Source: Candidatus Micrarchaeota archaeon (lineage in GTDB: Archaea; Micrarchaeota; Micrarchaeia; Norongarragalinales; Norongarragalinaceae). From it: a stretch of 64,000 nt of DNA. The stretch covers positions 116,643-180,642 of the forward strand of contig JACQQD010000001.1 of the NCBI GenBank assembly GCA_016207165.1, read 5' to 3'. Positions within the stretch are counted from its first letter, which is position 1; every line of letters starts with the position of its first letter. Positions 13,918-48,260 of the stretch are shown here, in pieces. The notes beneath the pieces are model-generated. The model searched no databases and was not told where the DNA came from. It worked only from the letters and a program-made list of their open reading frames with translations. A program made the position numbers and the translations under genes.

Positions 13918-14039
13918 TTGGTTTTCTTTTTGTTTTTTTTGAAGACGTTTTCCCATTCTTCATCTTCGGGGTTGTCCCAAAGCTCCGTCATTTTAGGTTT
14001 TTGGGCCTGTTTGAGGAACTCCTTTTCTTCGTTGTTCAT
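13914..14039 (-). CDS. 41-aa small protein (LWDNPEDEEW motif) between uvrA and uvrC
   Basis: ATGA overlaps with both the uvrA stop and the uvrC start. Confidence 0.55.
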   Translation of the reverse strand: MNNEEKEFLKQAQKPKMTELWDNPEDEEWENVFKKNKKKTK

Positions 14040-22306: not shown

Positions 22307-22319
22307 TAGTGATGTTTCA

Positions 22320-23813: not shown

Positions 23814-23819
23814 TTTTCA

Positions 23820-34039: not shown

Positions 34040-35394
34040 ACCCGGACATGTTCCGCGCGTACGACATCCGAGGCATCGTCGGAGAGGACCTCAACGACGC
34101 CGTCTTTGAACGCCTGGGCCAGGCCTTCGGGCAATACCTGCGCGAACGCTCTGGAAACAAGCCGTCGTGTGCCGTCGGCGGCGACAACCGCGAATCGTCG
34201 GCTTCCTATTTGAGCGCCTTCACCACGGGCTTGCTTTCCGTGGGCTGCGACGTGATGCACGTCGGCGAGATCACGACTCCCGGCCTTTACTTTGCCAATT
34301 CCTTTTTGAAAACCACCGGCGCGGCCGCGGTGACGGCGTCGCACAACCCGCCGAAGTACAACGGCGTGAAGTTCATTTTCCAAGGAAAAAGCGCGGGCGG
34401 AGCCGAGGTCCAGCGCGTGCGCGAACTGGCCGAGAAAAACTCGTTTTCAAAAGGGCAAGCCACCCTCTCCAAAAAGGACGTCACGCCGGCTTATTTGGAG
34501 GCCTTGTCGGAAAATGCCGAGCCCCTCAAACTCAAGGTGGTGGCGGACTGCGGCAACGGCGTGGCCTCCGATTTCGCTGTTTCCTACTTGAAGTCGCTGG
34601 GTTGCGACGTGGTGCCGCTTCACTGCGATTCCTCCAAGCCTTTTTCCGTGCACGTGCCGGACCCCGTGGACCCCGACAACTACGTGGATTTGGCGGCCGC
34701 CGTCCGCAAGCACGAGGCCGACGTGGGCTTGTTGTTTGACGGCGACGGCGACCGCGTGGGCGCCGTGGACGAGTTCGGTGGCATCGTGTCACCCGACAAG
34801 ATGTTGATCTTGTTCGCGCGCAAGTTCCTCAAGGAAAACCCCGGCGAAAAAGTCGTCATTGAAATCAAGTGTTCGCAGGCCGTTCAGGACGAAGTCGAGA
34901 AGCTCGGCGGAACGGCGGTGTGGGCGCCCACAGGCAGAACGGTGATTGAAGACGTTTTGTTCAAGGAACACGCGAAGCTGGCTGGGGAAATGTCGGGCCA
35001 CTTTTTCTTTTTGAACGGCCGGGCGTGGCTTTCCGAATCGCTGTACGCGGCACGGCAGTTGCTTGAAATCATCGCTGAAAACGGTTCGCTTTCCAAGCAG
35101 GTCGCTTCCATGCCGAAGTACGTGTCGTCCCGCGAGTACCGAGTGGACGTCACTGACGGGGAAAAATTCCGAATCGTTTCGAAACTGTCCAGCCAATTCA
35201 AGAAGACGCACCGCGTTTTGGAACTGGATGGCGCCAAGGTGTTGTTTGACGATGGTTGGGGCTTGGTTCGAGCGTCCAATTCCGAAGCCAAGGTGTCCCT
35301 CCGGTTTGAATCCAAAACGCGGAAGGGCTTGGCGGCGATTGAGTCCGCTTTCAAGGAAAAACTCTTGGCCGCAGGCGTGTCCGTGCCGTTTTAG
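34021..35394 (+). CDS. Phosphomannomutase/phosphoglucomutase
   Basis: FRAYDIRG, TASHNP, FDGDGDR, GEMSGH. Confidence 0.95.
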   Translation: MPVVRLNPDMFRAYDIRGIVGEDLNDAVFERLGQAFGQYLRERSGNKPSCAVGGDNRESSASYLSAFTTGLLSVGCDVMHVGEITTPGLYFANSFLKTTGAAAVTASHNPPKYNGVKFIFQGKSAGGAEVQRVRELAEKNSFSKGQATLSKKDVTPAYLEALSENAEPLKLKVVADCGNGVASDFAVSYLKSLGCDVVPLHCDSSKPFSVHVPDPVDPDNYVDLAAAVRKHEADVGLLFDGDGDRVGAVDEFGGIVSPDKMLILFARKFLKENPGEKVVIEIKCSQAVQDEVEKLGGTAVWAPTGRTVIEDVLFKEHAKLAGEMSGHFFFLNGRAWLSESLYAARQLLEIIAENGSLSKQVASMPKYVSSREYRVDVTDGEKFRIVSKLSSQFKKTHRVLELDGAKVLFDDGWGLVRASNSEAKVSLRFESKTRKGLAAIESAFKEKLLAAGVSVPF

Positions 35395-35783
35395 AGTCTC
35401 AATTCTTCCGGACGAATGATTTGGATTCCGCGAAATTCCTTGAGTTTCAGCAAGTGCCGATCGTACGTGAGGATATGGGTCGCATGGCCGTCTACCGCAC
35501 ACGCCAGTACCTTGTCGTCTTCGGGGTCATCTTTCACGGCGTGTATGACCGTCGTTACTGCAACTATGTTTGTCAGCGCGGTGACTCTTGACGTGGCGTC
35601 TTGCACTTCTCTGGTCTGGTACTCGAAGTCCCTATGCAAGACGGATTGAAGTTCTTCAAGGATTTCTTTTGAAACCAACAGGGTTGCATGTGTCTTGTGC
35701 AACGCGCGGATTTTTTTGTCCGCCTCGCTACCGTCCCACTGGGTGGCAGAAACTAAAATGTTCGTATCCAGCACCACCCGCAT
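35391..35783 (-). CDS. PIN-domain toxin
   Basis: VVLDTNILVSA, DPEDDKVL, ILTYD.HLL. Confidence 0.9.
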   Translation of the reverse strand: MRVVLDTNILVSATQWDGSEADKKIRALHKTHATLLVSKEILEELQSVLHRDFEYQTREVQDATSRVTALTNIVAVTTVIHAVKDDPEDDKVLACAVDGHATHILTYDRHLLKLKEFRGIQIIRPEELRL

Positions 35784-36241: not shown

Positions 36242-36371
36242 GCCGAGGTAGCTCAGCCTGGCTAGAGCGCTAGACTCATATGCCCGTTTCCTTGTTTAGG
36301 GAGCGGTGGAATTCTATGCCGGTGGTTGCTGGGCCATCTAGAAGTCGAGGGTTCAAATCCCTCCCTCGGCA
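36242..36371 (+). tRNA. tRNA-Met(CAT) with 55-nt intron at 37/38 (36281-36335)
   Basis: GCCGAGG/CCTCGGC acceptor stem, CTAGA-CTCATA..ATCTAG anticodon arm, GAGGG-TTCAAAT-CCCTC T arm. Confidence 0.92.
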
Positions 36372-37471
36372 TGACCCGGAAAGTTCATGTGCCGCACTCC
36401 ATCAAGATTCAAACGAGCGTACTGTTTGAGCAAATCCATTTTGCCTTCGTCAAAGATTTTCCTGACGATTTGACGCATCAAGTCCTTGTCCTTCCGGATC
36501 AATTCGACGACTTCATCCGAAAAGCCTTCCAGGAATTCCTCGGGAGACGTGGCCCCCATTTTCTGCAATTCACCCATGAGCGCCTGCTCTCCGGAGTGAT
36601 CGTACACTGAAAGCATGTTGGACTTCTTGGACCACCGCGCAAACGTGCGCGTCGCCGAATCACTAGCGCCGTTGGCCCGCAACTGCGTGATCTTGGAGTG
36701 CCGGAACCAATGCGGGTTGATCCGCTTCTTGACGCCGGCACGCTGGCCGAGGCCACGCAAGAACTTGGCCAAGTTCGCCGGCTCCAACGCATCACCATGA
36801 AAATTCAGCCAAAGCGGGGCCTCCGAATCCGATTTCTTCGGGTGTTCACGCAAGTACGCCCGGAACAAGTCGACGGCGTGACGATTGATCACCGGCACGC
36901 GGCCGTTCCGGTACGGCGTCTTGGTACCATGAAAGTGAAAGATCAAAAACGGCGGCCGATCCGTGACGTCGCCCACCTTCAAATCCGTGAACTCCTTGGC
37001 GGCGCCCCCGGATTCAAACAAGCACCGCACCACAACTTGCTCCCGCACGCTGCGACACGCCGCCTCCAAGCGCGTGATGTCCTCATCGGTGAGAACCTCG
37101 TTCTCCGGAATCAATTTGTCCGCCGGCCGAACCACGCGCACCCGGCCCGCCCGCTTGGCGTCACCATCCAAGAACCGGTAAAACTTTTTGAGAGCCACCT
37201 GGTAGTCGTGCTTGGTCCACGCCCGCCACTTGCTCGTGTTAATGGCCACTAGGACGGCATCCAAGTCTTCGTCCTGGAGATCCACCAACGCCTTGGAAGT
37301 CAAGCGCTTGATGGACGTAAAATTGCTGATGTACTTGCTCAACCGCAACTCGCCCACGCCCTGGGCCTGCAAGTTGTTCAAGAACCGCGTGATGGCCTCC
37401 TTGTCCCGCGCCGAAAAAGTAGACCTAGCCAACGACAGCTGGCGTTGCGCGTACAAAGCCACTCCATCCAT
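36353..37471 (-). CDS. Tyrosine recombinase/integrase; C-terminus reads through attL
   Basis: GTKT, HWFRH, W.KKSNM...Y.H; first catalytic Arg appears replaced (ESGGAAKE). Confidence 0.9.
   Translation of the reverse strand: MDGVALYAQRQLSLARSTFSARDKEAITRFLNNLQAQGVGELRLSKYISNFTSIKRLTSKALVDLQDEDLDAVLVAINTSKWRAWTKHDYQVALKKFYRFLDGDAKRAGRVRVVRPADKLIPENEVLTDEDITRLEAACRSVREQVVVRCLFESGGAAKEFTDLKVGDVTDRPPFLIFHFHGTKTPYRNGRVPVINRHAVDLFRAYLREHPKKSDSEAPLWLNFHGDALEPANLAKFLRGLGQRAGVKKRINPHWFRHSKITQLRANGASDSATRTFARWSKKSNMLSVYDHSGEQALMGELQKMGATSPEEFLEGFSDEVVELIRKDKDLMRQIVRKIFDEGKMDLLKQYARLNLDGVRHMNFPGHAEGGI
36359..36373 (+). repeat. attL core CCCTCCCTCGGCATG
   Basis: tRNA 3' end; identical to 48040-48054. 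Confidence 0.9.
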
Positions 37472-37637
37472 TACAGGTACCCTTCCTCTCGCGCTACTTT
37501 AAGCAAATCCAATAAAAAACGCATTCTCGACCGCGACACTCAAACCACCAAGAAAACCCGGTCGCCCACGCGCTCAACCACGCCGTGCGGAAACAAGCTT
37601 AACGCTTCCACCGGCACCCTTGAAATATCCCAACGCC

Positions 37638-37772
37638 TCACGCCGACCCCTCCGCATACTTCTGCAAAACGCACGACCGGATCAACTCACTGCGAGACAA
37701 GCCGATACGCTCCGACTCCTTGTCCAACAACTTGACAATTTTCTCCGGCAACGAAATTGAAACAAGTTCCAT
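37638..37772 (-). CDS. Ribbon-helix-helix (CopG-like) protein, 44 aa
   Basis: Translated by hand: MELVSISLPEKIVKLLDKESERIGLSRSELIRSCVLQKYAEGSA. Confidence 0.8.
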   Translation of the reverse strand: MELVSISLPEKIVKLLDKESERIGLSRSELIRSCVLQKYAEGSA

Positions 37773-37854
37773 ACGAAGGCCTATCGGTTAACACTTAATC
37801 TATTCTTAAAGGTTTCGTTGCTTGCCAGTAGTTTAAGTACAAATCATATACGCT
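37773..37854. promoter_or_regulatory. Divergent promoter region of the provirus
   Basis: AT-rich; TTTAAG boxes on both strands (37831 +, ~37810 -); GCAACGAAA/TTTCGTTGC inverted repeat at 37748-37756 / 37813-37821. Confidence 0.5.
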
Positions 37855-38202
37855 ATGCGTATGGCGGACGAGCCGACTATTGAAGAAATGGTCCAACTCC
37901 TAAAGAAACGGCGTTTCCTGCCGTTTGGCCACTCGTCTTACTTGGCAATCTTCATCGCAATGCTGGAAAAACCGCTCTCCAAGGCCGAAATGCAGGAAAT
38001 CGCAGGGCCCACTCCGCAAGGCGCGTTCATTCGAATTTTTGCAGCCCCGGGCGTCGGCTTCATGAACCGCGTCTTCGGCAAAAGCAAGCAAGGTAGCGAC
38101 ATCGTCAAGTACGAGTTGACGGAGAACGGACGCCAATTCGTCCTGGATCAACTGGACCTACTCAAAACGTTTTATAAGGCCACAGAACCAAAAAAAGAGT
38201 GA
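37855..38202 (+). CDS. Winged-helix DNA-binding protein (putative repressor)
   Basis: PLSKAEM.EI...YELTENGR wing motif. Confidence 0.65.
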   Translation: MRMADEPTIEEMVQLLKKRRFLPFGHSSYLAIFIAMLEKPLSKAEMQEIAGPTPQGAFIRIFAAPGVGFMNRVFGKSKQGSDIVKYELTENGRQFVLDQLDLLKTFYKATEPKKE

Positions 38203-38209
38203 ACAGCCA

Positions 38210-38518
38210 ATGGACAACTTCGAAGCGCAAGTAATTTCAATAACCCCCGTTCACTGGCCGGATGGCACTCTTGCCGTTAGCGTCGTCTTCGGTAACCCCG
38301 TTGCCGTTCAACAAAAAACACCAGATCAAAAAAACGTCGTACACGTTCAATTGCCAGGCCAACTACAAAACCAAGCGGTTCCACTCGCAAATCGCGTTAT
38401 ACTTCTTTTAACCCAAAAAGAATGGGACCAACTTCAACACAAGCCGACATACGGGGAAGCTTTCACATTCGCATCAACGAAAAACGGTTTCAAATTTGAA
38501 CGGGCTGCAAAAAATTAA
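38210..38518 (+). CDS. Small beta-rich hypothetical protein
   Basis: ORF in operon with wHTH and hicBA. Confidence 0.6.
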   Translation: MDNFEAQVISITPVHWPDGTLAVSVVFGNPVAVQQKTPDQKNVVHVQLPGQLQNQAVPLANRVILLLTQKEWDQLQHKPTYGEAFTFASTKNGFKFERAAKN

Positions 38519-38519
38519 C

Positions 38520-38840
38520 ATGTTTTGTTTTGACCTCCGGTTCAACACAAAAAAAGACGGAAAATTTTGGTTTATCGAGTGCCCAGACTATCCCGTGTTC
38601 ACGCAAGGCCGAACCAAAAAAGAAGCCAAAGAAAACCTCAAAGAAGCATTTTTGCTTTACGCCTCCGATTCAGATGCACAAGCCAAGCATCCCGAGCTAA
38701 AGCAATTATTCGCCCAGCAGCCAACCCAAGTCAAGTCCCTTACCGTTACGTTCGCGGTACCCGTCGATTCTTTCCTCTCAGCCATTTATGCCCCGCTTGC
38801 CGATTCTGTCAGGAAAACAACTGGCGAAAATCCTCTGTAA
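38520..38840 (+). CDS. hicB: HicB-family antitoxin
   Basis: IECPDYPVFTQGRTKKEAKENLKEA..LY. Confidence 0.85.
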   Translation: MFCFDLRFNTKKDGKFWFIECPDYPVFTQGRTKKEAKENLKEAFLLYASDSDAQAKHPELKQLFAQQPTQVKSLTVTFAVPVDSFLSAIYAPLADSVRKTTGENPL

Positions 38841-39018
38841 ACACTTCGGCTTCACGGAATCCCGAATAGCTGGAAGCCACCTCATCCTGAAAGGCGCCCG
38901 AAACGGCCAAGCCAAGACCATTCCAATTCCACTGCACCCGGAAATCGGGCGGCACTTGTTGAGCAGGATACTAAAAGAAGCCGAAATTTCACGAGAAGAA
39001 TTCGAAAACGCGTTATAG
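38788..39018 (+). CDS. hicA: HicA-family toxin
   Basis: LP.LSGK.L..IL...GF...R..GSH.IL...IP.H.EI....L..IL.EA. Confidence 0.9.
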   Translation: MPRLPILSGKQLAKILCKHFGFTESRIAGSHLILKGARNGQAKTIPIPLHPEIGRHLLSRILKEAEISREEFENAL

Positions 39019-39225
39019 GCCGCGCAAATCTGAGAAGATTACGTTCAAGCCAAGCAACGCCTTGCTTTTCTCCTCCGGCGACAACTCCGGCTTGTCCACC
39101 AACCTCATGACCATGGCGTGGTACTTGCGTTGTTCTTCCAGCGTAATCCAGTGGCGTTCCACGGCCCGCGCCAAATCCGATTCAATCTGCTCAAGGTACC
39201 GAGCGTAGGCCTTCCCCATCACCAA
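39013..39225 (-). CDS. Hypothetical protein
   Basis: ORF with TTTAAA-like box upstream. Confidence 0.5.
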   Translation of the reverse strand: MVMGKAYARYLEQIESDLARAVERHWITLEEQRKYHAMVMRLVDKPELSPEEKSKALLGLNVIFSDLRGL

Positions 39226-39334
39226 AGACTCGCGGGAACCCTTTAAAACCCTGGAGGCAGCAGCTGGCCGGTGAAATTTCAGCCTTTCTTGCGGCGTTTT
39301 TCTTCTAGTTTAACCAGAATCTCTAGGTGATTTT

Positions 39335-39676
39335 ATGACCAAAAAAACCCAAAGCCAAATTCTCGCGGAACTCCAGAACGGCTTGCACGACTCAAGCATC
39401 AAAGCAATGGACGGCTACCTGAAATACCTCCAGGAATTAAAGGTGCATTCAGACGAACTAGAAAAGCTCGAATTTACCTCTGCTTACGGCACAACGGCGC
39501 TTTTGCAAATGAGCGCTGTCACGTCAACTCTTGGTAAACAAATTTTTGAATTGGAGAGCTCCTTGAACCGTTTTTCCGAAACGACGACGAAACTGACCCA
39601 CGTCCTGATAGTTCTTGCAGGACTCCAAATCGTTTTAGTCGTCCTGCAGGTTGGCCGGATGTTCAATTTCTTTTGA
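39335..39676 (+). CDS. Coiled-coil protein with C-terminal TM
   Basis: RBS aggtga; C-terminal hydrophobic helix. Confidence 0.6.
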   Translation: MTKKTQSQILAELQNGLHDSSIKAMDGYLKYLQELKVHSDELEKLEFTSAYGTTALLQMSAVTSTLGKQIFELESSLNRFSETTTKLTHVLIVLAGLQIVLVVLQVGRMFNFF

Positions 39677-39687
39677 TGTCGACTTCA

Positions 39688-39867
39688 TCACTTTCCGCGG
39701 CGGATGAGTTCTTCCCGAAGCGCATCAATGGCGTCAATCAACCGTTCGTGGGACGCCTGGAGCTTTCGGAACACGGTTTCATGGATGTACACCATGTACG
39801 CAAGCCATAGCGCGACGATGCCGTTGTTCGCCAGCGCGTCCAAAATGATTGCGGAGAAATCAGTCAC
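39688..39867 (-). CDS. Small membrane protein, holin-like architecture
   Basis: GTG start overlapping the upstream stop; one TM plus coiled coil; last gene of the structural operon. Confidence 0.55.
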   Translation of the reverse strand: MTDFSAIILDALANNGIVALWLAYMVYIHETVFRKLQASHERLIDAIDALREELIRRGK

Positions 39868-40073
39868 ACGCCAAACCCCATTTTCCGCAGGCGCTCCGCC
39901 AAAGCGTTTGCGTCCATGTATGAAGACTTTACGGTGACTTCCACGTCCACCGTGCCATCCGGATTCGTCGCCACGACCTCCCACTTGACGGCGTTGGCCA
40001 ACTCCAAGGCCTCCGGCGACAACGACCCCAAAACCCCTTGCGGTTTCAACGGAATGTTTTTGAGCCTCATCAA
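39864..40073 (-). CDS. Small viral protein
   Basis: Coupled to the spike gene. Confidence 0.55.
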   Translation of the reverse strand: MMRLKNIPLKPQGVLGSLSPEALELANAVKWEVVATNPDGTVDVEVTVKSSYMDANALAERLRKMGFGV

Positions 40074-41119
40074 ACCACCCCGTCAACCAGCAACGGCGTT
40101 CCCAAGTCGATGTTGATAGTCCTGTCAACGAAACCCGCGCAGTACAACCCGAATCCGGCAACGCTTGCCGGGCCGGTGTTCGTCGTCGTCAGCGTGGGTC
40201 CACCCGTGGCTGCGTGCGCGGGCAAATTCTGCCAGTACGAAAACTCGACTCCAGCCTTCCAATAGACTTCAAAGGTGTTGAATGCGGTTCCAACGGCTGC
40301 ACCGGTGGCGTGGTTCGTCGCCGCGCCCGCCGCACTCGTCGTCTGCAAACGGAAACCCGCGCTTGCAATGTTGATGCCGAAAGCACTTTTCGGGTATGCG
40401 CCGGTAATGTCCGCCGTCGCGCTTTCCGTGAAATAGATTCCCGCTTCCATGTTGGCGTCCACCACGGACGCGCGAATGGAAAACTTCGCCCAAAGTTCGG
40501 TCACGGACGCGCCGATGGGCCAAATCAATTGCGTCTTGTTGTTCGCCCCGGACCGCGTGCTGGCCATTCGCGCGTAGGCCACGGCTTGCGATTGCACGTT
40601 CGTGCTTCCTGCTCCCTGGTTGTCCGTGCTGGGAGCGCTACCTAGAACTGTGCCGTCCACGTGGGCGATTCGTGCCGCGGGAGCAACCATGCGCATGTTC
40701 ACGCGGTACTTGAGGGCGTTGGCGACGTTGGGCAAACCAAGGCCGCCGACTTGGGCTGCTGTTGGCGAGGAAATCGCGCACAACACTTCGTTGACAAAAC
40801 CGTTTCCAAACTTTCCGCGCCCCGTTGCATCCGCAGTAAACACTCCAACCGGCAACTTTGACAAGAGAACTTGGTTGTCGCCCAGCAATCCCGAGTCCAC
40901 GAAAGAACTGGCGAATTTGCCGCGTCCCGTCGCATCCGCCGTGAACAAGCCGGTGGGCACGTGGCCCAAAGCCATGGCCGCCCACGCTGCCAAGCTGGAT
41001 CCATTCGTCGCAAGCAACTGGTTTGCGGTGCCGCCCTTGACGCGACTGGACCCGCCGGCAGTGGTCTCCAGCGTGACGTTGTCGGGAGTAAAAACGCTTC
41101 CACCAGGAAGAAAACCCAT
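40070..41119 (-). CDS. Putative spike/receptor-binding protein
   Basis: G/A/T/S-rich, duplicated FTADATGRGKF repeat, beta-rich C-terminal domain. Confidence 0.6.
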   Translation of the reverse strand: MGFLPGGSVFTPDNVTLETTAGGSSRVKGGTANQLLATNGSSLAAWAAMALGHVPTGLFTADATGRGKFASSFVDSGLLGDNQVLLSKLPVGVFTADATGRGKFGNGFVNEVLCAISSPTAAQVGGLGLPNVANALKYRVNMRMVAPAARIAHVDGTVLGSAPSTDNQGAGSTNVQSQAVAYARMASTRSGANNKTQLIWPIGASVTELWAKFSIRASVVDANMEAGIYFTESATADITGAYPKSAFGINIASAGFRLQTTSAAGAATNHATGAAVGTAFNTFEVYWKAGVEFSYWQNLPAHAATGGPTLTTTNTGPASVAGFGLYCAGFVDRTINIDLGTPLLVDGVV

Positions 41120-41122
41120 TCG

Positions 41123-42265
41123 TCAAATCAACCCGGCTTTGCGCATGCCTTCCCGAATCACGCCCGTGTCAAAGCCAAGGCCCGACTGGGAAAGCACGGT
41201 CAAGAAACTTTCTCCGGAGGTCGACGGCGACACCGTCAGCAAGAAAGCCAGCTGGCGTTCAAGCGTCGATCGAAGGCCGGCGTCGACGAATCCGCTTTCT
41301 CCAGCCAACGATCGGCGGATGGCGTCTTCGGCGACTTGCCGCGCCGTCATGCCCGGAGACGCAAAGTCTCCAGACAAGAGGCGCAACTGCGCGGGGGGAG
41401 CCGGCAGTGGAACAGGAGAATAATTCGGGATGACTTGCGCAGGCGATGGTTGCGGGGGCAAAGTAACCTGGACTTGCAGCGGGTAACCGCCAGTAGGCTC
41501 GGCGGTGCCGACTTCGCCAAAGTAAAGCCTCACCGCTTCCAAACCCGCATTCAACGAGTCTTTGGCCGTCCAACCAAACGCCCAAAACACGGGAGCGCCG
41601 ATGCCCAAGTCTACGCGCTTGATGAACACGTCACCGCTTTGCGTAACTGCCTCTTGGGCATCCGGGGACAAACGCAGCAACAACGAGCCGAGGCCCGTTT
41701 CAAAGCCCGGCGTCAGCCAACCCCCAAGCACCAAGTAATTGACTTTGCGAGCGGAAACGCCCAGGCTTCTAGCCACGGTAGCCGTGACGGTAAACGCGGA
41801 CGCGTCCATGGTTTCCACGGACAAGCCCACCGCCTGAATCGCGCCCTTGACTGTCGGCAGAATCGTTTGGCTGCCAGCATCTTTTCCGGTCACGATGACG
41901 ACGATGCCGCTTGTTTCCGCCGGCTTTTGAGCAGCCGCTTGCTCCCGGACGCCGCCTAAGACGAAGTCGTAGATGCCAGCCGGGATTCCGAACAACGGGT
42001 TAGTGGCCGTCAAGGCTTGCGCGGCCGGCGACGTGGCCAATTGCTGCGACGTTTCAGCCAAGGCTGGCAACACGGGTTGAAAAGAGACTTCCGGAGCGCG
42101 AGGAAACACGGGTTCCGGGGCCTTGGGTTCCTCGATGACGAACGCGTTGCGTGGCAACGGCACGTTCTTAAACTCCTTGGGCTTGGCTTCGTCTTTCACC
42201 GACAGCCAGTAGCCTAACGCCAGGAGGCCAGCCGCGGCCAAAACCAACGTGCCCTGGTTCGCCAT
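41123..42265 (-). CDS. N-terminally membrane-anchored virion protein with S-layer-like alpha/beta domain
   Basis: N-terminal TM; IVVIVTG..A, NYLVLGG, VFWAFGWTAKDS. Confidence 0.55.
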   Translation of the reverse strand: MANQGTLVLAAAGLLALGYWLSVKDEAKPKEFKNVPLPRNAFVIEEPKAPEPVFPRAPEVSFQPVLPALAETSQQLATSPAAQALTATNPLFGIPAGIYDFVLGGVREQAAAQKPAETSGIVVIVTGKDAGSQTILPTVKGAIQAVGLSVETMDASAFTVTATVARSLGVSARKVNYLVLGGWLTPGFETGLGSLLLRLSPDAQEAVTQSGDVFIKRVDLGIGAPVFWAFGWTAKDSLNAGLEAVRLYFGEVGTAEPTGGYPLQVQVTLPPQPSPAQVIPNYSPVPLPAPPAQLRLLSGDFASPGMTARQVAEDAIRRSLAGESGFVDAGLRSTLERQLAFLLTVSPSTSGESFLTVLSQSGLGFDTGVIREGMRKAGLI

Positions 42266-42266
42266 T

Positions 42267-42506
42267 TCATTTCCTCAACAGCAGAAACGCTGCGATCGCC
42301 AGTCCTCCAAGCAAAATCAAGGGGCTAATAGAGAATCCCGAAGACGTGGCTTGAACGGCCGGCGCTGGCTGCGTGATCGGCTTGACGATTTCCTCTCCAA
42401 CCACGAATGCAGTCACTGCGATAGCGCCCAACGCCAAAACCGTGGGCAAGGCAGGCAACGCGGCAACAGCAATCAAAGGCAAAACCATTTTTTTCAACAC
42501 CTTCAA
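42267..42506 (-). CDS. Small hydrophobic virion membrane protein
   Basis: Two hydrophobic segments. Confidence 0.6.
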   Translation of the reverse strand: MKVLKKMVLPLIAVAALPALPTVLALGAIAVTAFVVGEEIVKPITQPAPAVQATSSGFSISPLILLGGLAIAAFLLLRK

Positions 42507-42865
42507 GCTGGGATCAAGTCCCCTTGGATCATCAACTGGACGACGCCCGAGCTGGAGGCAACCAAGGCCAACAATTCGATGGTTTCGTTTTGGTCCAGGA
42601 CAAGAGGTTTTCCGCTTCGGTTCACAGTGAACGCTTGCGTCAAGCGGCGTGAAGACGTCGTGGTCAACAACGGCTTACCTTTGATCCGTAAATCAATTTG
42701 ACCGGCCACCGCCGACCCCGTGAAATTCGAGTCCGCCGTAATGCTGATCTCGAGGATCTCCGCCTTTTTTCCAGCGGGAACCGTGAACGTGACCTGACTG
42801 GTCAAAGCCGTCTGGTTGACAGTGATCGCGTCCGAGAGGAACACGAAGGGATCCGACGCCGGCAT
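42503..42865 (-). CDS. Beta-rich 120-aa protein (penton/minor capsid candidate)
   Basis: FTVPAGKKA.I.EI.I motif; directly after the MCP candidate. Confidence 0.5.
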   Translation of the reverse strand: MPASDPFVFLSDAITVNQTALTSQVTFTVPAGKKAEILEISITADSNFTGSAVAGQIDLRIKGKPLLTTTSSRRLTQAFTVNRSGKPLVLDQNETIELLALVASSSGVVQLMIQGDLIPA

Positions 42866-42872
42866 GGCGCCA

Positions 42873-43712
42873 TCACTCCCTGATGCCCAGGTACCAGTTG
42901 ATCGTGTCCGAGCCGGCGCCCGTCACGTCCAACTGCATCTGGCTGGAGGGAATGAAGGGCGTCACCGGCACGCGGAAGCGACCGGTGATGTGTCCGGACA
43001 CGAAGCGGTCCTGGTCAAGCGCAATCAAGTCCGCCGGCGTGAGAGCTGACAATTCCAGCGATCCATCCCGCGAAAGCGTGAAGTCCGTAACGTTGGCCTC
43101 CGTGCCGACCGTGAACCCCACGAGTTCAATGCGGCGGCCTTGCGGCAGGTTCGGCCCAAAACGGTTTGCTCCGGACACGATGGACTGCGACAAGCGCATG
43201 TACCGTTGCGTGAAACCCGAATCCACGTTGGAGTAAAGACCCACGACAGTCAACGTCACCGTGCCACCCGTGGCGCCGGACGTAGCCATGTCACTGAACG
43301 GAGCAATGGTGACTTGCAGCCGCGCGTCCATGTCTTTTTGCGCAATCGCGTTCGGCAAGTAGTACCGACGCGTTTGGGACGAGGAAGACGTGGTGGCCAC
43401 CGCAGTGTTGATGCCCATCGGGCTAAACAACTGCTCAATGATGGCCAAGTCGCGGCCGCGGACGTTCTGCCAAATGGCGTTGCCACCCTTGTCAGAAATC
43501 TTGACGTCCTGGATCGCGTAATCCAGCGTGTTCGCGCCCGTCAGCGTGCCCGTGGTCGACTGCGTCAAGTGGAACTCCAATGCCACCAAAGCGCCCACGT
43601 TGGGAATGACGACTTCCGACTGCGTGGCCGCCGACGCGGCCATGGCCACGCTGGAAAGCGACTGGATCGTCAAGCGCTTGACGCGCTGTTCAAGTTGACT
43701 TTGGTGTTGCAT
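42873..43712 (-). CDS. Probable double jelly-roll major capsid protein
   Basis: 279 aa, beta-rich two-half pattern; IP.VG.LV.L...IQDV.I...G..I..V.G.DL resembles PM2/STIV-type MCP; downstream of the ATPase. Confidence 0.65.
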   Translation of the reverse strand: MQHQSQLEQRVKRLTIQSLSSVAMAASAATQSEVVIPNVGALVALEFHLTQSTTGTLTGANTLDYAIQDVKISDKGGNAIWQNVRGRDLAIIEQLFSPMGINTAVATTSSSSQTRRYYLPNAIAQKDMDARLQVTIAPFSDMATSGATGGTVTLTVVGLYSNVDSGFTQRYMRLSQSIVSGANRFGPNLPQGRRIELVGFTVGTEANVTDFTLSRDGSLELSALTPADLIALDQDRFVSGHITGRFRVPVTPFIPSSQMQLDVTGAGSDTINWYLGIRE

Positions 43713-43724
43713 GATTCCAACACC

Positions 43725-44021
43725 TCACGCGCGAGCAAACACGCCGGAAAGCGTGTTTGCCACGGGTTGAAGAAACGGAACCACGATGGGTGAGACGGCG
43801 ATGACGAAGCCGGCTGCCATGGCGCCCTTGGCTGCAAAGCCAACCACACCAGACTTGCCCACGAAGGCGTACAACGCGTAACCGGCTGCCACCATGAGTG
43901 CTCCGAGAATCATCGGGCTGCCGCCGGAGAACGCGCCCAGCAAGGGCTGCAAGACGCCGGACGAAAAGACTTGCGCAATGCCCAGCGAAGCCGCCGACAT
44001 CAAAACTTCCATCAAAACCAT
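43725..44021 (-). CDS. Small multi-TM virion membrane protein
   Basis: Hydrophobic; strong RBS aaggtga. Confidence 0.65.
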   Translation of the reverse strand: MVLMEVLMSAASLGIAQVFSSGVLQPLLGAFSGGSPMILGALMVAAGYALYAFVGKSGVVGFAAKGAMAAGFVIAVSPIVVPFLQPVANTLSGVFARA

Positions 44022-44080
44022 GACAAAATCACCTTGAACACGGCTTTGCCCTGGAGTCGTTCAAAAAGACCCCAGTTTTT

Positions 44081-44118
44081 TTAACCGGGGTTATACGCTG
44101 GAGTATAACCCGCGTTAA
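44081..44118. promoter_or_regulatory. Palindrome upstream of the structural operon
   Basis: TTAACCGGGGTTATAC-6nt-GTATAACCCGCGTTAA (14/16 arms). Confidence 0.55.
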
Positions 44119-44300
44119 ATCCGGTTCGCGTGGTGCAGGCGTTGCCAGTGCGCGTCGACTTCTTTCTTGAGGACGAAGCGCAGGAACTCGGACAAGTGAA
44201 GGTAGCCGTTGGATCCCGCGATTTTTCGGACCTTCCAGGCTTTGGGCACGCGTACAGCAATGAATTCGTACTCGTTTTCCTCAAATTTTTTCGTGTTCAA
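44115..44300 (-). CDS. RHH-like small DNA-binding protein
   Basis: FIAVRVPK...LSEFLRFVLKKEV. Confidence 0.55.
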   Translation of the reverse strand: MNTKKFEENEYEFIAVRVPKAWKVRKIAGSNGYLHLSEFLRFVLKKEVDAHWQRLHHANRI

Positions 44301-44862
44301 CCACGTGGCCCCCGTCAAAATGCAAGAACCGAAAGCCGCTTAGATCCTTGGCTTTGAAAGCGTCGTCGCCAATGAATCCCCGGAGGTACTCCAAATCCTG
44401 CGGCATAATTGTCCTGAAAACGAACAAGTGGTTGACTTGCGCGACGGGCGCCTTGTCCAAGTCGGCGATGCGGCGCGTGACGCAGAACATGCCAACGTTG
44501 CGGTGTCGGCCCAAGTCAATGAACTCCTTTGCGCGTGGCCCGATTTTTCGGGACGGCATGACTTGGTCGGCTTCATCCACAAACAAAAAGAAGCCGCCTG
44601 CCTTGTACACCAGCGCGGCCACGTCCTCGAATTCCTCTTGGCTTCGGGTGCGGCCCTGGAAAACGATTTTCTGGTTCAACCGCATGGCCACCCGCAGCTG
44701 GTCCAGCGACTCGACTTTCATGCCGAGGCTGCCGTGTTCGCGCATGGGGTCCCACAACACGTAACGCGGCGTGTTTTTGACGACAGACCTCATGAAATGG
44801 CTTTTTCCAGAGCCCCGCATGCCGCAGCAAACCACGACGTCCGTTCCCTTCATGCGAATCAT
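44281..44862 (-). CDS. A32/FtsK-HerA family genome packaging ATPase
   Basis: GMRGSGKS Walker A, FLFVDEAD Walker B, GRHRN and VTRR motifs; ~190 aa. Confidence 0.85.
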   Translation of the reverse strand: MIRMKGTDVVVCCGMRGSGKSHFMRSVVKNTPRYVLWDPMREHGSLGMKVESLDQLRVAMRLNQKIVFQGRTRSQEEFEDVAALVYKAGGFFLFVDEADQVMPSRKIGPRAKEFIDLGRHRNVGMFCVTRRIADLDKAPVAQVNHLFVFRTIMPQDLEYLRGFIGDDAFKAKDLSGFRFLHFDGGHVVEHEKI

Positions 44863-45161
44863 GTCTTCGGCCCCGTGAGTTTCTCAAAACCCTCCTGAAT
44901 TTTTTTCTGCTCTTGGACCAATGCGGCTTGGAGTTCCTCCGGCGACTGCGCAGGCATCCGGGCTTCGACTTTGTGCTTGTGCAGCCACTCGTGAAAGTAG
45001 ACGAGCACGTCGTCTTCGATTTTTCCCCTGTTAGCCAAGATCGTGGCTTTGAAGCCGGATCGGCTGGCGCGGAGCAGGCCCCGCATTTGAGGCGGTACGA
45101 ACTGCACGAGCTGCATGAAAAAGTCCGTCAATTCCTCGCAGGCCTGATCCGACAACACCAC
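44859..45161 (-). CDS. Hypothetical viral protein
   Basis: Coupled to the ATPase. Confidence 0.6.
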   Translation of the reverse strand: MVLSDQACEELTDFFMQLVQFVPPQMRGLLRASRSGFKATILANRGKIEDDVLVYFHEWLHKHKVEARMPAQSPEELQAALVQEQKKIQEGFEKLTGPKT

Positions 45162-45165
45162 CCGT

Positions 45166-45321
45166 TCAACCCTCGAAAAACTCGTCTTTTTCTTCGGCTT
45201 CCTTTTCCTTACTCAAGGCGTCCAGCCTCTCTTTCAAGTCGGCGACTTCACGCTTGAGGGCCTCGTTTTCTCGCACCAGTTCTTCCAGCCGCTGATAGCC
45301 CGGCTTTTTTTCTTCCGTCAT
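45166..45321 (-). CDS. 51-aa coiled-coil protein
   Basis: Translated by hand: MTEEKKPGYQRLEELVRENEALKREVADLKERLDAL...; RBS ggtga. Confidence 0.6.
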   Translation of the reverse strand: MTEEKKPGYQRLEELVRENEALKREVADLKERLDALSKEKEAEEKDEFFEG

Positions 45322-45417
45322 TGTCGTTCACCGTCCTGGACCGGAGAGGCCCCCGCAGTGAGTGCGGGGACATCCGGTTTTTGGGTGGGTTTCTTCGTTT
45401 TCTGAGCGTTTTGCCCT

Positions 45418-46089
45418 TCAAGGCGTGACACTCGGGCTTCCAGTTCCTGGATTTCCTGCTGTAGATCCGCTTCCGACATTCTCGTTCCCTCCTTTCTTGG
45501 CCATTTCCGCAGCCAATTGAGCTTTGTTAACCAGAGTCGTGACTAGGACGGCGCCCAAAACCGCCAGCTCCATGTGTTCCTTCAAGAGATCCGGCGCGTA
45601 CTTTTCGACCACCGGCTTTGAGACTTCCGCCAAGTTGTCGGCTTCGTCTTTCTCTAACTTCCAGGCCTCGTTTTTCTGGGCGCCGGCCAAGACGTTGAAT
45701 CCAGCCTTCCAAATACCGGCCAACATTTCCACCCGGATTTGAAAGTCCTTGACTTGCGCGGTTTTCTTTCCGAATTCAGCCACGTCTTCTTCCGTAACCG
45801 GTTCCGACACTTCCGGCAGCTTCTTTTCCGGTTGTTCCACGACGACGGAAAGCCCTTTTTTAGACCCATCCGGCCCGGAATCTTTGGCCTCAGCATCCGG
45901 CGTCCCATCCGGCGCTTTGACCTGGATTTGTTGTTCGGCAGCCGCCAATTCCGACTTGGTGGCCACTCCAATGTGTCGATCGCAGTTTGGGCACCGCTTC
46001 GATAACGGGCTGCCTTGCCAGTCGTGCCTGCAAAAAGGACAATGCCGCTTGATTTTCGGGCCTTTCTTGCGCCCGGGCTTATTGGCCAT
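45418..46089 (-). CDS. Zn-ribbon protein with C-terminal membrane segment
   Basis: CPFC...CPNC; W.L...EA..LA....PV.EKY followed by a hydrophobic helix. Confidence 0.7.
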   Translation of the reverse strand: MANKPGRKKGPKIKRHCPFCRHDWQGSPLSKRCPNCDRHIGVATKSELAAAEQQIQVKAPDGTPDAEAKDSGPDGSKKGLSVVVEQPEKKLPEVSEPVTEEDVAEFGKKTAQVKDFQIRVEMLAGIWKAGFNVLAGAQKNEAWKLEKDEADNLAEVSKPVVEKYAPDLLKEHMELAVLGAVLVTTLVNKAQLAAEMAKKGGNENVGSGSTAGNPGTGSPSVTP

Positions 46090-46285
46090 TCAAATCACCT
46101 TTGTCTTGATGCGAGAATTGCTCGATTTTTTCCGCAAGTAATCCTGCCAAGACGATCAGCACGACGTTGTTCAGGTGCTCTTTCACCAGCTGCGGTTCGC
46201 CTTGTCCCTTTGATTTTGAAAGGCGGCCGGCAATGAGTGCCACGTCGGTTTGGATTTTTCTCGCGGTTTCGCAATTTTCGCACAT
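46079..46285 (-). CDS. Small CxxC protein
   Basis: MCENCE; coupled ORF. Confidence 0.55.
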   Translation of the reverse strand: MCENCETARKIQTDVALIAGRLSKSKGQGEPQLVKEHLNNVVLIVLAGLLAEKIEQFSHQDKGDLNGQ

Positions 46286-46288
46286 TTT

Positions 46289-46951
46289 TCATCCCCCTTG
46301 TAACACTGTCTCTAAACCCTGTGGTTTTGGTACGGTTTTGTCCGTTTCCGTGCTTGAATTTGAAACGTTGCTTAACTGGCCAGTTTTGATTCGACGCCAA
46401 ACGGTTGGGGCGGACACTCCGAGTTCTTTGGCAATTTTCCGAACGCCAAAGCCTTGCTGACGCAGTGCGTCGATGGCCTTAAGGCTGATGTCGCGTGGTT
46501 TGCGGCCGACTTTTACTCCGCTTTCGCGAATCTTGGCCCGGCCTCTTTCGTTTCTTTCTTGGATCAAAAGCCACTCGATGTCGGCAGCAAGCGCAAGGCC
46601 TCCAATTAGGGCCCTTCCTTCCATGGCGTTGTAATCTAACGTTGTTTCAGAATTCACCAGGACAATTTTGATACCGAGCTTGGAAAGAGTCTCGACTGTG
46701 TGGTGAATGAAGCCAATTGAACGGCCGAGTCTGGAAAGCTCCACGATGCCCACCAATTCGAATTCTTTGAGGTTAGCCGCTTCAAGCAATGCATTGATGC
46801 CTGCACGCGAATCCTGACGCCCGGAAACAGCAAAATCCTCGAACAAAAAGAAGTCGTAGCCTTTACGGGTGGCCCAGGCTTTCAATTGCTGGGCCTGCCC
46901 ATCCAAATCCTGCTTGCGGGTTGAACACCGAGCATACAAGGCCACCCTCAT
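46289..46951 (-). CDS. Serine recombinase (resolvase/invertase) with C-terminal HTH
   Basis: YARCST..QD...Q, VSG...R, LSRLGRS, ER..RG, GRK, IAKELGVS..TV. Confidence 0.92.
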   Translation of the reverse strand: MRVALYARCSTRKQDLDGQAQQLKAWATRKGYDFFLFEDFAVSGRQDSRAGINALLEAANLKEFELVGIVELSRLGRSIGFIHHTVETLSKLGIKIVLVNSETTLDYNAMEGRALIGGLALAADIEWLLIQERNERGRAKIRESGVKVGRKPRDISLKAIDALRQQGFGVRKIAKELGVSAPTVWRRIKTGQLSNVSNSSTETDKTVPKPQGLETVLQGG

Positions 46952-47051
46952 GCTCTTGCACCCCACCACCGCAACGGCGCAAAACCCAACCGACAAAATC
47001 GGCACACATAATGTCCGAAGTCCGGAGGATTCCTGTGACAATGGCGGCACT

Positions 47052-47942
47052 TCAAGGCTGCATTCCTCCAAAGCGTTTCAAGAAGTCCTCCTGGACTTCG
47101 CTCCGTTTTTGCACGTTGGCCACAGCTTGCGTGAGCTTGAACAACGTTTCCCGGAGTTCTTCCGGATCAATAGCGCCTCGTCCCACCAAGTCCAGGAACT
47201 TGGCGATGCGGTGCATGTCTTCCACCGCGTACTGCTTGTCAATCGTCTCGACTTCAGCAACCCCCGTGGAAAAATCGATGACAAGACGGTTGGTGCCGTA
47301 GTGAAAACCAGAAGGGACCCAGCGCGTAATACCGCCCAGCATGGCAATGTGGTGCCGGCACAAGTCGAAGGATCCCTCAAGCAGAAGCCCAGGAAAGCGC
47401 CGCTCCATTTTCTTGGAAATCTGAAAGCCCAGTTCCAGGAGCTGCTCGGCGGCCTCGTACACGCTGCCGGCGTACACTTCCTTGGGGTAAATCAGCATGC
47501 TGGACTTGTTGAAAAAAATCTTGTTCCCATCGTGGTGAATCTGGTAGCCGTCCATGAAGCCCCGAGCCGTGGCCATGCCGCCCACATCCACCAAGCGCTT
47601 GACTAAGTCCTCCGGAACTTCCACAATGCTGAATTTGAGGATTGCCGCATGTGGCCTAAACCGAATCTTGATTTCCGTCCGGAGCAGCTCGTCGATGTTG
47701 CGGTTCCCGAACACCCTTCTTAGGACTTTTAGTTCATGCTTGCCTGCGGTGGTCAGCGTCCAGTACTTGGTTTTGGCTCCAGGCTTCAAATCTGCGAGAA
47801 CTCGTTTAACGAGGCCCAGACGCTCCAGAACGGCCAATCTTCGGTAAGCGTTGGATCGGTCGATCTTCAAAAGCTTGCCCAAATGGGTCGCGGATCCGGA
47901 TTCGTCAGCAGCCAGCAGGGCGATATATGTTGCGCCTGCCAT
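47052..47942 (-). CDS. wHTH-containing protein, candidate replication initiator
   Basis: N-terminal MarR-like wHTH (SNAYRRL..LE..GLVKR...W.LT..G); C-terminal domain with R.H...KF.I motif. Confidence 0.6.
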   Translation of the reverse strand: MAGATYIALLAADESGSATHLGKLLKIDRSNAYRRLAVLERLGLVKRVLADLKPGAKTKYWTLTTAGKHELKVLRRVFGNRNIDELLRTEIKIRFRPHAAILKFSIVEVPEDLVKRLVDVGGMATARGFMDGYQIHHDGNKIFFNKSSMLIYPKEVYAGSVYEAAEQLLELGFQISKKMERRFPGLLLEGSFDLCRHHIAMLGGITRWVPSGFHYGTNRLVIDFSTGVAEVETIDKQYAVEDMHRIAKFLDLVGRGAIDPEELRETLFKLTQAVANVQKRSEVQEDFLKRFGGMQP

Positions 47943-48039
47943 GTTGCGGTTTTTAGGGCGACTCAAAAAAACCGCCACCCCGTTTTTTTGGAGTGCGGCT
48001 TTTCGCTATTTTTGCGGCTCTTGAACTTTCCTTACGTTG

Positions 48040-48054
48040 CCCTCCCTCGGCATG
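48040..48054 (+). repeat. attR core CCCTCCCTCGGCATG
   Basis: Exact copy of the tRNA-Met 3' end. Confidence 0.9.
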
Positions 48055-48201
48055 GTCGCCCCGGGGGACACCTGCGCTTCGGCTCCGGTTTCCCCCTGGC
48101 ACGCCCTACGCCTCGCCCCCTTCCTTTTCGATTCGCAGCGCTAAAGTGAGGGAGGGTCAGGAAGAACGTGAAACTGGGGAGGGACGCGTCCTCCGCGGTT
48201 C
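48055..48201. repeat. GC-rich hairpin (REP-like) elements
   Basis: Reverse complement of 48147-48201 resembles 7671-7727. Confidence 0.6.
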
Positions 48202-48260
48202 AGGCATTATACCGTGGGCTCAGATTACTCCCGAAAGTTTGTCAGAATCTACGATCTCAC

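Follow-up and report, generated by a model that had tools for sequence, protein, structure and literature searches.

A putative double jelly-roll provirus integrated at a tRNA-Met gene of a groundwater Micrarchaeota archaeon

We analysed a 64-kb window (64,000 nucleotides, the whole stretch of DNA to which the positions below refer) of a Micrarchaeota genome, in which an 11,681-bp element lies between two 15-bp direct repeats, the left one over the 3′ end of a tRNA-Met gene. The element encodes a protein of 279 amino acids (aa) that is predicted to be a double jelly-roll (DJR) major capsid protein (MCP), a genome-packaging ATPase of the kind found in tailless membrane-containing viruses, and a tyrosine integrase. 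The best explanation, to which we assign a probability of about 0.85, is that the element is the integrated genome of a DJR virus (Varidnaviria), i.e., of a temperate virus with a tailless icosahedral virion, probably with an internal membrane and double-stranded DNA, that infects a Micrarchaeota host. An earlier note on the same DNA had described a complete provirus of this type in a probable DPANN archaeon. The host is indeed a Micrarchaeota (DPANN) archaeon from groundwater: the window's genome (G000; 1.27 Mb in 12 contigs, estimated to be 90% complete) belongs to the same genus as a Micrarchaeota bin (G001), which carries a related element at locus L001. All open reading frames (ORFs) of the window's element look intact and both repeats are exact, and it is plausible that the provirus is complete.

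The capsid protein, the packaging ATPase and a candidate penton protein

The 279-aa protein matched no Pfam or PHROG family, and a profile built from 25 sequences gave a best expect value (E) of only 0.64 against all sequences in the Protein Data Bank (PDB), the MCP of Sulfolobus turreted icosahedral virus (STIV) included. Its AlphaFold2 (AF2) model, made from a 25-sequence alignment, had a predicted local distance difference test (pLDDT) of 89.0 and a predicted template-modelling score (pTM) of 0.84, and shows a single chain folded into two sets of about eight strands, one after the other. Foldseek searches of the PDB with this model matched P3 of PRD1 and PR772 (E 4e-12, template-modelling score (TM) 0.68) and the STIV MCP (E 2.6e-11, TM 0.70), followed by the capsid proteins of PBCV-1 and iridoviruses, with 157 PDB matches at E ≤ 0.001. 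Alignments with VIA-align gave Z-scores (Z) of 21.0 for PR772 P3 (root-mean-square deviation (rmsd) 3.7 over 272 residues), 20.6 for PRD1 P3, 20.5 for the STIV MCP (2bbd; rmsd 2.8 over 254 residues), 18.2 for PM2 P2, 16.8 for FLiP and 16.2 for phiCjT23, whereas cellular double jelly-roll proteins (DUF2961, GH172) reached only 11.7 to 11.9. In the viral structure library BFVD, the best match was AMDV5_4 (E 2.8e-15, TM 0.76/0.74, rmsd 3.4, 18% identity).

Judged from its predicted structure, the 279-aa protein is a DJR capsid protein. The earlier note had proposed this for a beta-rich protein and had suggested the comparison with PM2 P2 and STIV given above; a fold other than a jelly roll, which it had named as the outcome that would overturn its proposal, is not what the confident double jelly-roll model displays. 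Two vertical jelly rolls in a single MCP chain, by which Varidnaviria/Bamfordvirae are recognized, are present in this model. The prediction of a homotrimer from three copies of the protein scored 0.01 against a mark of 0.42, and counts neither for nor against the assignment.

A second mark of Varidnaviria is an A32-like FtsK/HerA ATPase encoded near the MCP, and such a gene is found 570 bp from the MCP gene. The ATPase matched STIV B204 (4kfr) by phmmer over residues 6-184 (E 3.8e-9) and fell into phrog_2666 (E 6.4e-26). A tblastn search of 50,697 phage and archaeal virus records yielded 23 matches, all of them (23/23) in tailless membrane-containing viruses, i.e., NO16-like vibriophages (11), the Bacillus phages AP50 and Wip1 (4), Methanosarcina spherical virus (MetSV; 4), STIV2 (2; 27% identity), Lysinibacillus phiG2 (1) and Thermus phiKo (1). 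At the sequence level the protein groups with the packaging ATPases of tailless membrane viruses and not with conjugative or pleolipoviral NTPases, so that the A32-like character given to it earlier holds and the second outcome named as contrary does not apply.

It should be noted that phrog_2666 is also the source of the sole "terminase large subunit" label in the element, and that the packaging ATPases of STIV2, AP50 and MetSV are labelled in this way too by automatic annotation. Among the 24 candidate ORFs of the element, 20 were scanned with Pfam and 16 with PHROGs, and membrane segments were called by a hydropathy threshold. These scans found no portal, tail, HK97 capsid or polymerase family, in agreement with the earlier statement that terminase, portal, tail and polymerase are lacking, the labelled protein being the small packaging ATPase. 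The MCP gene is flanked by genes for small hydrophobic proteins, which together with the missing tail, portal and HK97 families would fit, as indirect evidence, a tailless icosahedral virion with an internal membrane.

Next to the MCP gene is encoded a 120-aa protein, already described as beta-rich, whose AF2 model (8 sequences; pLDDT 73.4) is a single jelly-roll sandwich. The model matched a BcsB domain (Z 9.6), a phage cement protein (9.5) and the satellite panicum mosaic virus coat protein (9.4), then STIV 4ind (8.6), SPV1 (7.6) and an HHIV-2 chain (7.3), and, lower, PR772 chain O (6q5u_O, 124 residues; 7.1) and PRD1 P5 (6.8), with matches ranging down to 6.7. Of the 10 related loci in which the MCP matched in full, seven also encode a homologue of the 120-aa protein; its gene follows that of the MCP directly in six and lies 1.9 kb downstream in the seventh (L004). 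No homologue was detected at E ≤ 1e-3 in three short loci (L030, L031 and L032). The fold fits a penton (vertex) protein without proving it, and this role, for which the 120-aa protein is a candidate, is better argued from the conserved position beside the MCP.

Integration site and gene content of the element

The 15-mer CCCTCCCTCGGCATG is present in two exact copies, which form the attL and attR cores (Table 1). There was no third copy in the window with up to one mismatch, and two or more matches were found in none of 100 dinucleotide-preserving shuffles. The cores are 11,681 bp apart from start to start, which is the element length counting one core and reproduces the repeats and unit size of the earlier note. 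The target tRNA was recognized by Rfam (RF00005, 59.1 bits, E 6.3e-11, full model 1-71) and, in intron mode, by ARAGORN as tRNA-Met (cat) i(41,55) at C1:152884-153013, which corresponds to the window positions in Table 1. Without intron mode, ARAGORN mis-called it as an undetermined tRNA. Throughout G000, 21 of the 35 tRNA calls made in intron mode carried predicted introns, among them introns of 235, 656 and 2,014 nt, which are too long to be plausible and are likely artefacts.

Further analyses revealed where the original trailer of this tRNA now lies. When the attR core and the next 96 nt were aligned to the end of tRNA-Leu(CAG) and the trailer that directly adjoins it on contig C6 of G000, 83 of 120 columns were identical, against 61 of 131 in the control alignment with the attL core and 96 nt of element DNA. 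Thus, what stands between the tRNA-Met gene and its own trailer is exactly the 11.7-kb unit. The hairpin and T-rich sequence found there, about 90-150 nt long (window 48055-48205), recurs in several copies in this genome (C6:21008-21049, C6:92236-92280, C12:63344-63381 and C3:109311-109368) and in relatives (loci L008-L014), with 80-92% identity over 30-90 nt and often less than 100 nt from tRNA genes. Rfam gave no family for it at E ≤ 0.01; its possible roles are those of a tRNA trailer, a terminator or a processing signal specific to the lineage.

The last six codons and the stop codon of the integrase gene extend across attL and the tRNA 3′ end. An integrase gene that abuts attL in this way is the strongest single sign of site-specific integration. 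Because the att core lies within these last codons, integration swaps the C-terminal tail of the integrase, whose ORF encodes 372 aa in the integrated state and a computed 399 aa in the closed 11,681-bp circle. In SSV-type archaeal integrases, attP lies inside the integrase gene, and the overlap in the window resembles a mild version of that layout. Direct repeats, one of them over a tRNA 3′ end, and an adjoining integrase gene are the features of a tRNA-integrating temperate element, and all of them are present here. The flanking genes are ordinary host genes, encoding a phosphoglucomutase (33979-35394), a PIN-domain protein (35391-35783) and a 787-aa BNR/sortilin-repeat protein (48261-50624). 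The PIN-domain gene is toxin-like and, with the HicA region of the provirus (38496-39018), makes two toxin-type genes within 4 kb.

Most genes of the element form a leftward run from 47978 down to about 39700, in which the winged-helix protein, resolvase, Zn-ribbon protein, ATPase, membrane protein, 279-aa protein, 120-aa protein, further membrane proteins and the 380-aa and 349-aa proteins stand in the order reported in the earlier note. The tRNA-Met(CAU) gene at attL, the tyrosine integrase and a rightward block (37855-39676), which lies between the integrase and the leftward run and contains hicA, had been absent from that note. Upstream of the HicA toxin, the 114-aa ORF gave a weak antitoxin-like match to PF12910 (E 1.9e-4), below the cut-off.

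Table 1. Features of the element and of its integration site (positions in the window).
Position	Strand	Feature	Basis
36242-36371	+	host tRNA-Met(CAU) with 55-nt intron, integration target	Rfam and ARAGORN
36353-37471	-	tyrosine integrase, 372 aa; adjoins attL from inside	PF00589 E 3.3e-13; phrog_1 E 2.9e-17
36359-36373	.	attL core, 15 bp; final 13 nt of tRNA-Met and 2 nt beyond	direct reading
37855-38518	+	two ORFs (115 and 102 aa), start of rightward accessory block	no Pfam above cut-off, no PHROG
38496-39018	+	HicA toxin (38788-39018) after 114-aa antitoxin-like ORF (38496-38840)	PF07927 HicA_toxin E 1.9e-11
39013-39225	-	70-aa ORF	ORF list
39335-39676	+	113-aa ORF with C-terminal hydrophobic helix (residues 89-107)	hydropathy; no Pfam or PHROG family
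39688-40161	-	157-aa frame with hydrophobic C-terminal part, called holin-like in the earlier note	no Pfam or PHROG match
39864-40073	-	69-aa ORF, end of leftward run	ORF list
40070-41119	-	349-aa protein, candidate spike or receptor-binding protein	N-terminus conserved in G001 element
41123-42265	-	380-aa protein with N-terminal membrane anchor (5-23), candidate virion membrane or minor structural protein	hydropathy; no family
42267-42506	-	79-aa membrane protein, 2-3 hydrophobic segments	G001 element counterpart E 4.6e-19
42503-42865	-	120-aa single jelly-roll protein, candidate penton	AF2 model and conserved position
42873-43712	-	predicted major capsid protein, 279 aa, double jelly roll	AF2, Foldseek, VIA-align
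43725-44021	-	98-aa polytopic membrane protein directly upstream of MCP gene	hydropathy; G001 element E 2.7e-9
44115-44318	-	67-aa ORF between ATPase and 98-aa membrane protein	G001 element E 7e-17
44281-44862	-	genome-packaging ATPase, 193 aa (STIV B204/PRD1 P9 class)	phmmer, PHROG, tblastn
44859-45479	-	three ORFs of 100, 51 and 53 aa	100-aa: no family; 51- and 53-aa: charged, coiled-coil-like by eye
45418-46089	-	223-aa protein with N-terminal Cys-rich Zn-ribbon-like motif	CxxC...CxxC in translation; weak PF10571 E 0.007
46079-46285	-	68-aa ORF	no Pfam match
46289-47071	-	serine recombinase (resolvase and helix-turn-helix)	PF00239 E 7.6e-27; HTH_23 E 3.1e-6
47052-47978	-	308-aa protein with N-terminal winged helix and orphan C-terminal domain; candidate regulator or replication initiator	PF01978 TrmB E 4.5e-6
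48040-48054	.	attR core, 15 bp	direct reading; second of two copies
48055-48150	+	host tRNA trailer displaced by insertion (hairpin and T-rich motif)	trailer alignment

Two of the functional labels given earlier held only in part. The winged helix of the 308-aa protein, labelled as a winged-helix/Rep candidate, was recovered as a TrmB match, but no Rep family was found by Pfam; at near lengths the protein matched only itself among 5.8 billion proteins, and its best Atlas score (0.82) was uninformative. The 223-aa protein, labelled as a Zn-ribbon transmembrane protein, carries the Zn-ribbon-like Cys motif, but no segment exceeded the hydropathy threshold. It has a counterpart in the G001 element (E 1.9e-32), and in locus L002 the ATPase gene is preceded by a similar ORF of 230 aa. 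Further counterparts in the G001 element were found for the 380-aa protein (E 3.8e-83), the 100-aa ORF (E 1e-17) and the 51-aa ORF (E 2.3e-6). For the 349-aa protein, the N-terminal 115 residues were 40% identical in the G001 element (tblastn E 4e-22; phmmer E 6.4e-32), and its Atlas features scored 0.92 to viral clusters, in one of which 15% of the members carry Mtd_N, which is a lead only. The position of the 98-aa gene is taken in loci L002 and L003 by a 125-aa ORF with a hydrophobic stretch, as judged by eye and not scored. The start of the serine recombinase is probably an ATG 40 codons past the listed TTG, because its PF00239 domain begins at residue 43.

We suggest that the integrase would act on the viral attP, which overlaps the integrase gene at its 3′ end, and on the tRNA 3′ end, recombining the two and thereby regenerating the tRNA. 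By analogy with what is established for PRD1, PM2 and STIV, trimers of the MCP would form the pseudo-hexameric capsomers of an icosahedral shell over a lipid vesicle bearing the small membrane proteins (the 98-aa and 79-aa proteins and the anchor of the 380-aa protein), and pentamers of the 120-aa single jelly-roll protein would close the vertices. The 349-aa protein may be the spike or receptor binder, given that its N-terminus is conserved and the rest variable and given the Atlas lead. The ATPase would pump the circular genome in through a vertex. HicA and the putative antitoxin, together with the serine recombinase and the orphan winged-helix protein, would be concerned with maintenance, multimer resolution and regulation or replication initiation, and DNA synthesis would be left to the host replisome.

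Related loci, state of the provirus and rival explanations

In the collection of 5.8 billion proteins, the MCP has 24 other clusters at 90% identity, whose longest contigs are 8.7-12.9 kb in 11 cases, more than 190 kb in two and less than 8 kb in 11. Its profile found 136 clusters at E ≤ 0.001 among 1.84 billion representatives (clustered at 50% identity), 95 of them at E ≤ 1e-10 and 55 at E ≤ 1e-30; 10 distant members of the family matched no PHROG family. A pattern scan of species-representative genomes led to four MCP loci, in a Micrarchaeota bin (68% identity), an Aenigmatarchaeota bin, a Woesearchaeota bin and a 9,465-bp contig, and two more loci came from metagenomes. The MCP was found in seven of 401 genomes sampled from the phylum of the window's genome, its own genome and one weak match included, and such patchy occurrence is the pattern expected of a mobile element.

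The ATPase, the MCP and the 120-aa homologue are encoded together in the Micrarchaeota and Aenigmatarchaeota (L002) bins, in a metagenome contig (L005) and in a 9.4-kb terminally redundant contig (L004), and all four ATPases of relatives that were tested matched phrog_2666. The MCP gene is followed by that of the 120-aa homologue in L003, L006 and L029, and L003, a Woesearchaeota fragment, carries only these two of the three genes. The 9,465-bp contig L004 was binned as Chloroflexus sp. and has the same 22 nt at both ends; it encodes the MCP, the 120-aa homologue, the phrog_2666 ATPase and a Gly/Ala-rich repeat protein (33-nt DNA repeats, 3742-4078). A contig that starts and ends with the same sequence usually stems from a circular molecule that was assembled in linear form, and L004 probably represents a free circular virus genome, about 9.44 kb in size, that was mis-binned into a bacterial metagenome-assembled genome.

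The closest relative, the G001 element, has 11 genes in the same order as the window's element, the first being that of the Cys-rich protein and the last that of the 349-aa protein, of which the N-terminus is shared, and the morphogenetic genes of the two elements share 37-74% protein identity. Opposite window positions 46289-47978, the G001 element (L001 4167-7799) encodes three proteins of about 300 aa that have no Pfam family and are unrelated to the winged-helix protein and the recombinase. By this comparison, the non-structural module is completely replaced between two elements of the same genus, which suggests a fast-evolving replication/regulation module beside a conserved morphogenetic one. 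The L002 element begins beside a tRNA-Gly gene. Downstream of its structural genes, L002 also encodes an N6/N4 DNA methylase (13340-14329; PF01555, E 1.5e-49), which has no counterpart in the window's element.

In its integrated form the element is bridged by Logan contigs from three runs of one study, at both attL and attR in X1 and X2 and at attR in X3; X1 may be the source sample of the assembly. A skip from 36365 to 48088 in the contigs was considered as an attB joint and rejected, for it holds 29 foreign letters between sides of 21 nt and resembles the end and trailer of a tRNA-Leu-like gene, not of tRNA-Met. The exact string of 29 letters is absent from G000, and the joint is probably, from these letters, the tRNA locus of a related organism and not an empty site. 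The search for an empty site in other genomes found no orthologue of the right-flank 787-aa BNR/sortilin gene in G001, G002, G009 or G004, and the 13-kb regions around the left-flank phosphoglucomutase orthologues in G001 and G002 contained no tRNA and no shared neighbours; the same-genus genomes have no conserved synteny at the integration locus. G000 holds no CRISPR-like array and no spacer-like match to the element outside it (best 24 nt, 96% identity, E 0.012).

Several results weigh against reading the element as a virus. It was identified from sequence and predicted structure, and no virion, membrane or infection was observed. No MCP homologue was found in IMG/VR, where none of 354 pattern matches was confirmed, and none by tblastn at E ≤ 0.01 in the 50,697 phage and virus records, STIV2 included, so that no isolated or catalogued virus anchors the family. 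The model of the 120-aa protein has only moderate confidence (pLDDT 73.4), and the structures that it matched are jelly rolls of a generic kind, with Z of 7-9.6, a common range. Pfam scans recognized no replication protein (Rep, primase or polymerase families), the winged-helix protein being an orphan. The contigs of four runs contain neither an attP circle joint nor a clean attB empty site, and the element's contig depth in X1 (20.5, against 24.2-25.5 in the flanks) is not in excess; both are weak tests, as contigs drop rare variants. Moreover, integrase genes were found neither in L002, where no exact repeat of at least 11 nt of the tRNA-Gly 3′ region was seen, nor in L001, where the only att candidates are two 14-mers at chance level.

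Part of this would suit a cryptic or defective provirus, i.e., a former DJR virus that is locked in the chromosome or kept by the host for a cargo of HicA toxin system and recombinases and makes no particles now: the missing attP and clean attB, the lack of excess depth, the unrecognized replication protein and a same-genus relative in which neither integrase nor att repeats are detectable. We nevertheless consider such decay unlikely, since the window's att cores are both exact, its integrase ORF is intact, its morphogenetic ORFs are all uninterrupted while at 37-74% identity to the G001 copy, and the missing attP carries little weight for the reason just given.

It is very improbable that the element is an integrative plasmid or another non-viral element with a cellular-type DUF2961/GH172-like protein of 279 aa. 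No virion was seen and cellular structural matches do exist (4kq7, Z 11.9; 7v1v, 8ic8 and 8ah3, Z 11.7), but the viral capsid proteins of PRD1, STIV, PM2, FLiP and phiCjT23 score far higher (Z 16-21), genes for a B204-type ATPase and a small jelly-roll protein accompany that of the MCP in L001, L002, L005 and, non-adjacently, L004, and Pfam scans of the provirus ORFs found no conjugation or plasmid replication family. A virus of Singelaviria type (sphaerolipovirus-like), whose capsid would be built from two single jelly-roll proteins, here the 279-aa and 120-aa proteins, could be suspected from the two adjacent beta-rich genes downstream of the ATPase gene, from Thermus phiKo among the ATPase matches and from the HHIV-2 chain matched by the 120-aa model. 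Yet the 279-aa model aligns at full length (254-272 residues) with both jelly rolls of PRD1 P3 and the STIV MCP and has its two sets of about eight strands in a single chain, which leaves this arrangement extremely improbable.

Position among known viruses and novelty

As a probable integrated DJR virus, the element invites comparison with the Turriviridae (STIV and STIV2), with which it shares an archaeal host, a DJR MCP, a B204-type ATPase (B204 being the closest solved relative of the ATPase by sequence), a small and presumably circular genome, and small membrane proteins encoded beside the capsid genes. The two differ in that the MCPs have no sequence similarity and are of unequal length (279 aa here, 345 in STIV), in genome size (11.7 kb here, 16,622 bp in STIV2; that of STIV is about 16-18 kb), in the integration via a tyrosine integrase and in the host, a mesophilic groundwater DPANN archaeon instead of a hyperthermophilic crenarchaeon. 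Pfam and PHROG scans found no relatives of the STIV turret proteins. Given that the MCP has no sequence relationship to that of STIV and only the ATPase is related, the element does not belong to the Turriviridae.

The best structural matches of the MCP are to PR772/PRD1 P3 and PM2 P2 of the Tectiviridae and Corticoviridae, and the ATPase matches include AP50, Wip1 and phiG2. The 120-aa protein is near the size of the 124-residue PR772 chain, and genomes of about 10-15 kb are common to these families and the element; the hosts of these families are bacteria, however, and MCP identity in the structural alignments is 10-13%. In tectiviruses the genome is linear, ends in terminal inverted repeats and encodes a protein-primed family B DNA polymerase. 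Because no polymerase family was found in the 20 ORFs scanned with Pfam and the direct att repeats and integrase imply a circular form, the element is not a tectivirus. PM2 has a circular genome of about 10 kb, the P2 MCP and rolling-circle replication by a Rep protein. The size of 11,681 bp, the implied circularity and the Z of 18.2 with P2 fit the Corticoviridae, whereas the lack of a Rep family in the Pfam scans, the lack of sequence similarity and the higher scores of PRD1 and STIV do not.

Integrated DJR proviruses with an MCP and an A32-like ATPase are known from other archaea, i.e., TKV4 of Thermococcus, MVV of Methanococcus, and thaumarchaeal and Asgard examples. The MCP and ATPase module in an integrated element is common to TKV4/MVV-type proviruses and the window's element, while the host phylum differs; the MCP family also differs in having no detectable sequence link to catalogued virus proteins. 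AMDV5, whose AMDV5_4 protein (289 aa) is of similar length to the MCP, is likewise an archaeal virus known only from metagenomes, and it was linked to I-plasma, a Thermoplasmatales-group archaeon and not a DPANN one (PMC2745766). Nanohaloarchaeal tailless viruses ("Nanicoviridae") share with the element DPANN hosts, assigned in their case from metagenomes, and were placed in Singelaviria, with pairs of single jelly-roll proteins, in contrast to the DJR lineage (bioRxiv 10.1101/2025.02.15.638363).

Groundwater and other anoxic habitats harbour DPANN archaea in abundance, yet few of the viruses of these archaea are known. The host of an uncultured virus is usually assigned via CRISPR spacers; a cleanly bounded, apparently intact element with an unambiguous host is rare for such viruses. 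The capsid family, with its 136 clusters, is invisible to Pfam, to PHROGs and to sequence comparison with solved structures, so that the predicted fold alone reveals its identity, and a profile of this MCP family would let virus-mining pipelines recover such viruses. Its presence here extends the PRD1/STIV lineage to another deep archaeal branch and bears on the age of that lineage, which is the extension of a known virus lineage and not a new principle.

The virus is probably a new family-level member of the known Varidnaviria lineage, and the new virus family put forward in the earlier note is plausible. Whether the lineage constitutes an undescribed DJR family specific to DPANN archaea, spanning at least Micrarchaeota, Aenigmatarchaeota and Woesearchaeota and occurring both integrated and as free circles of about 9-13 kb, is a proposition to which we give slightly less than even odds. 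If it does, the element would be the first provirus documented for Micrarchaeota and would speak for a long history of PRD1/STIV-type viruses with ultra-small symbiotic archaea. The study of Wu, Liu and Ni (2024), on viruses that were assigned from metagenomes to DPANN hosts, reportedly mentions tailless icosahedral viruses in its abstract, and the lineage may already be among the families described there. Those families number seven (Wu, Liu and Ni 2024, Nat Microbiol 9:3362), as cited in a 2026 survey of archaeal proviruses (PMC13573593). That survey reports no provirus in 1,356 Micrarchaeota genomes and assigns three of its 655 archaeal provirus viral operational taxonomic units to Varidnaviria (PMC13573593). 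In the literature searched, a scope that did not extend to Wu, Liu and Ni 2024, no paper ties a double jelly-roll virus to Micrarchaeota. Six DPANN-related terms are all absent from the main text of Yutin 2018 (PMC5894146) and of Woo 2021 (PMC8328091), as are six terms on Varidnaviria or Micrarchaeota from PMC12960796.

Outside the element, the GC content of the window falls to 0.43-0.44 at 22001-24000, compared to 0.54-0.62 around it, over a stretch spanned by a 497-aa ORF (22320-23813); an island of foreign origin or a gene of unusual composition may account for this.

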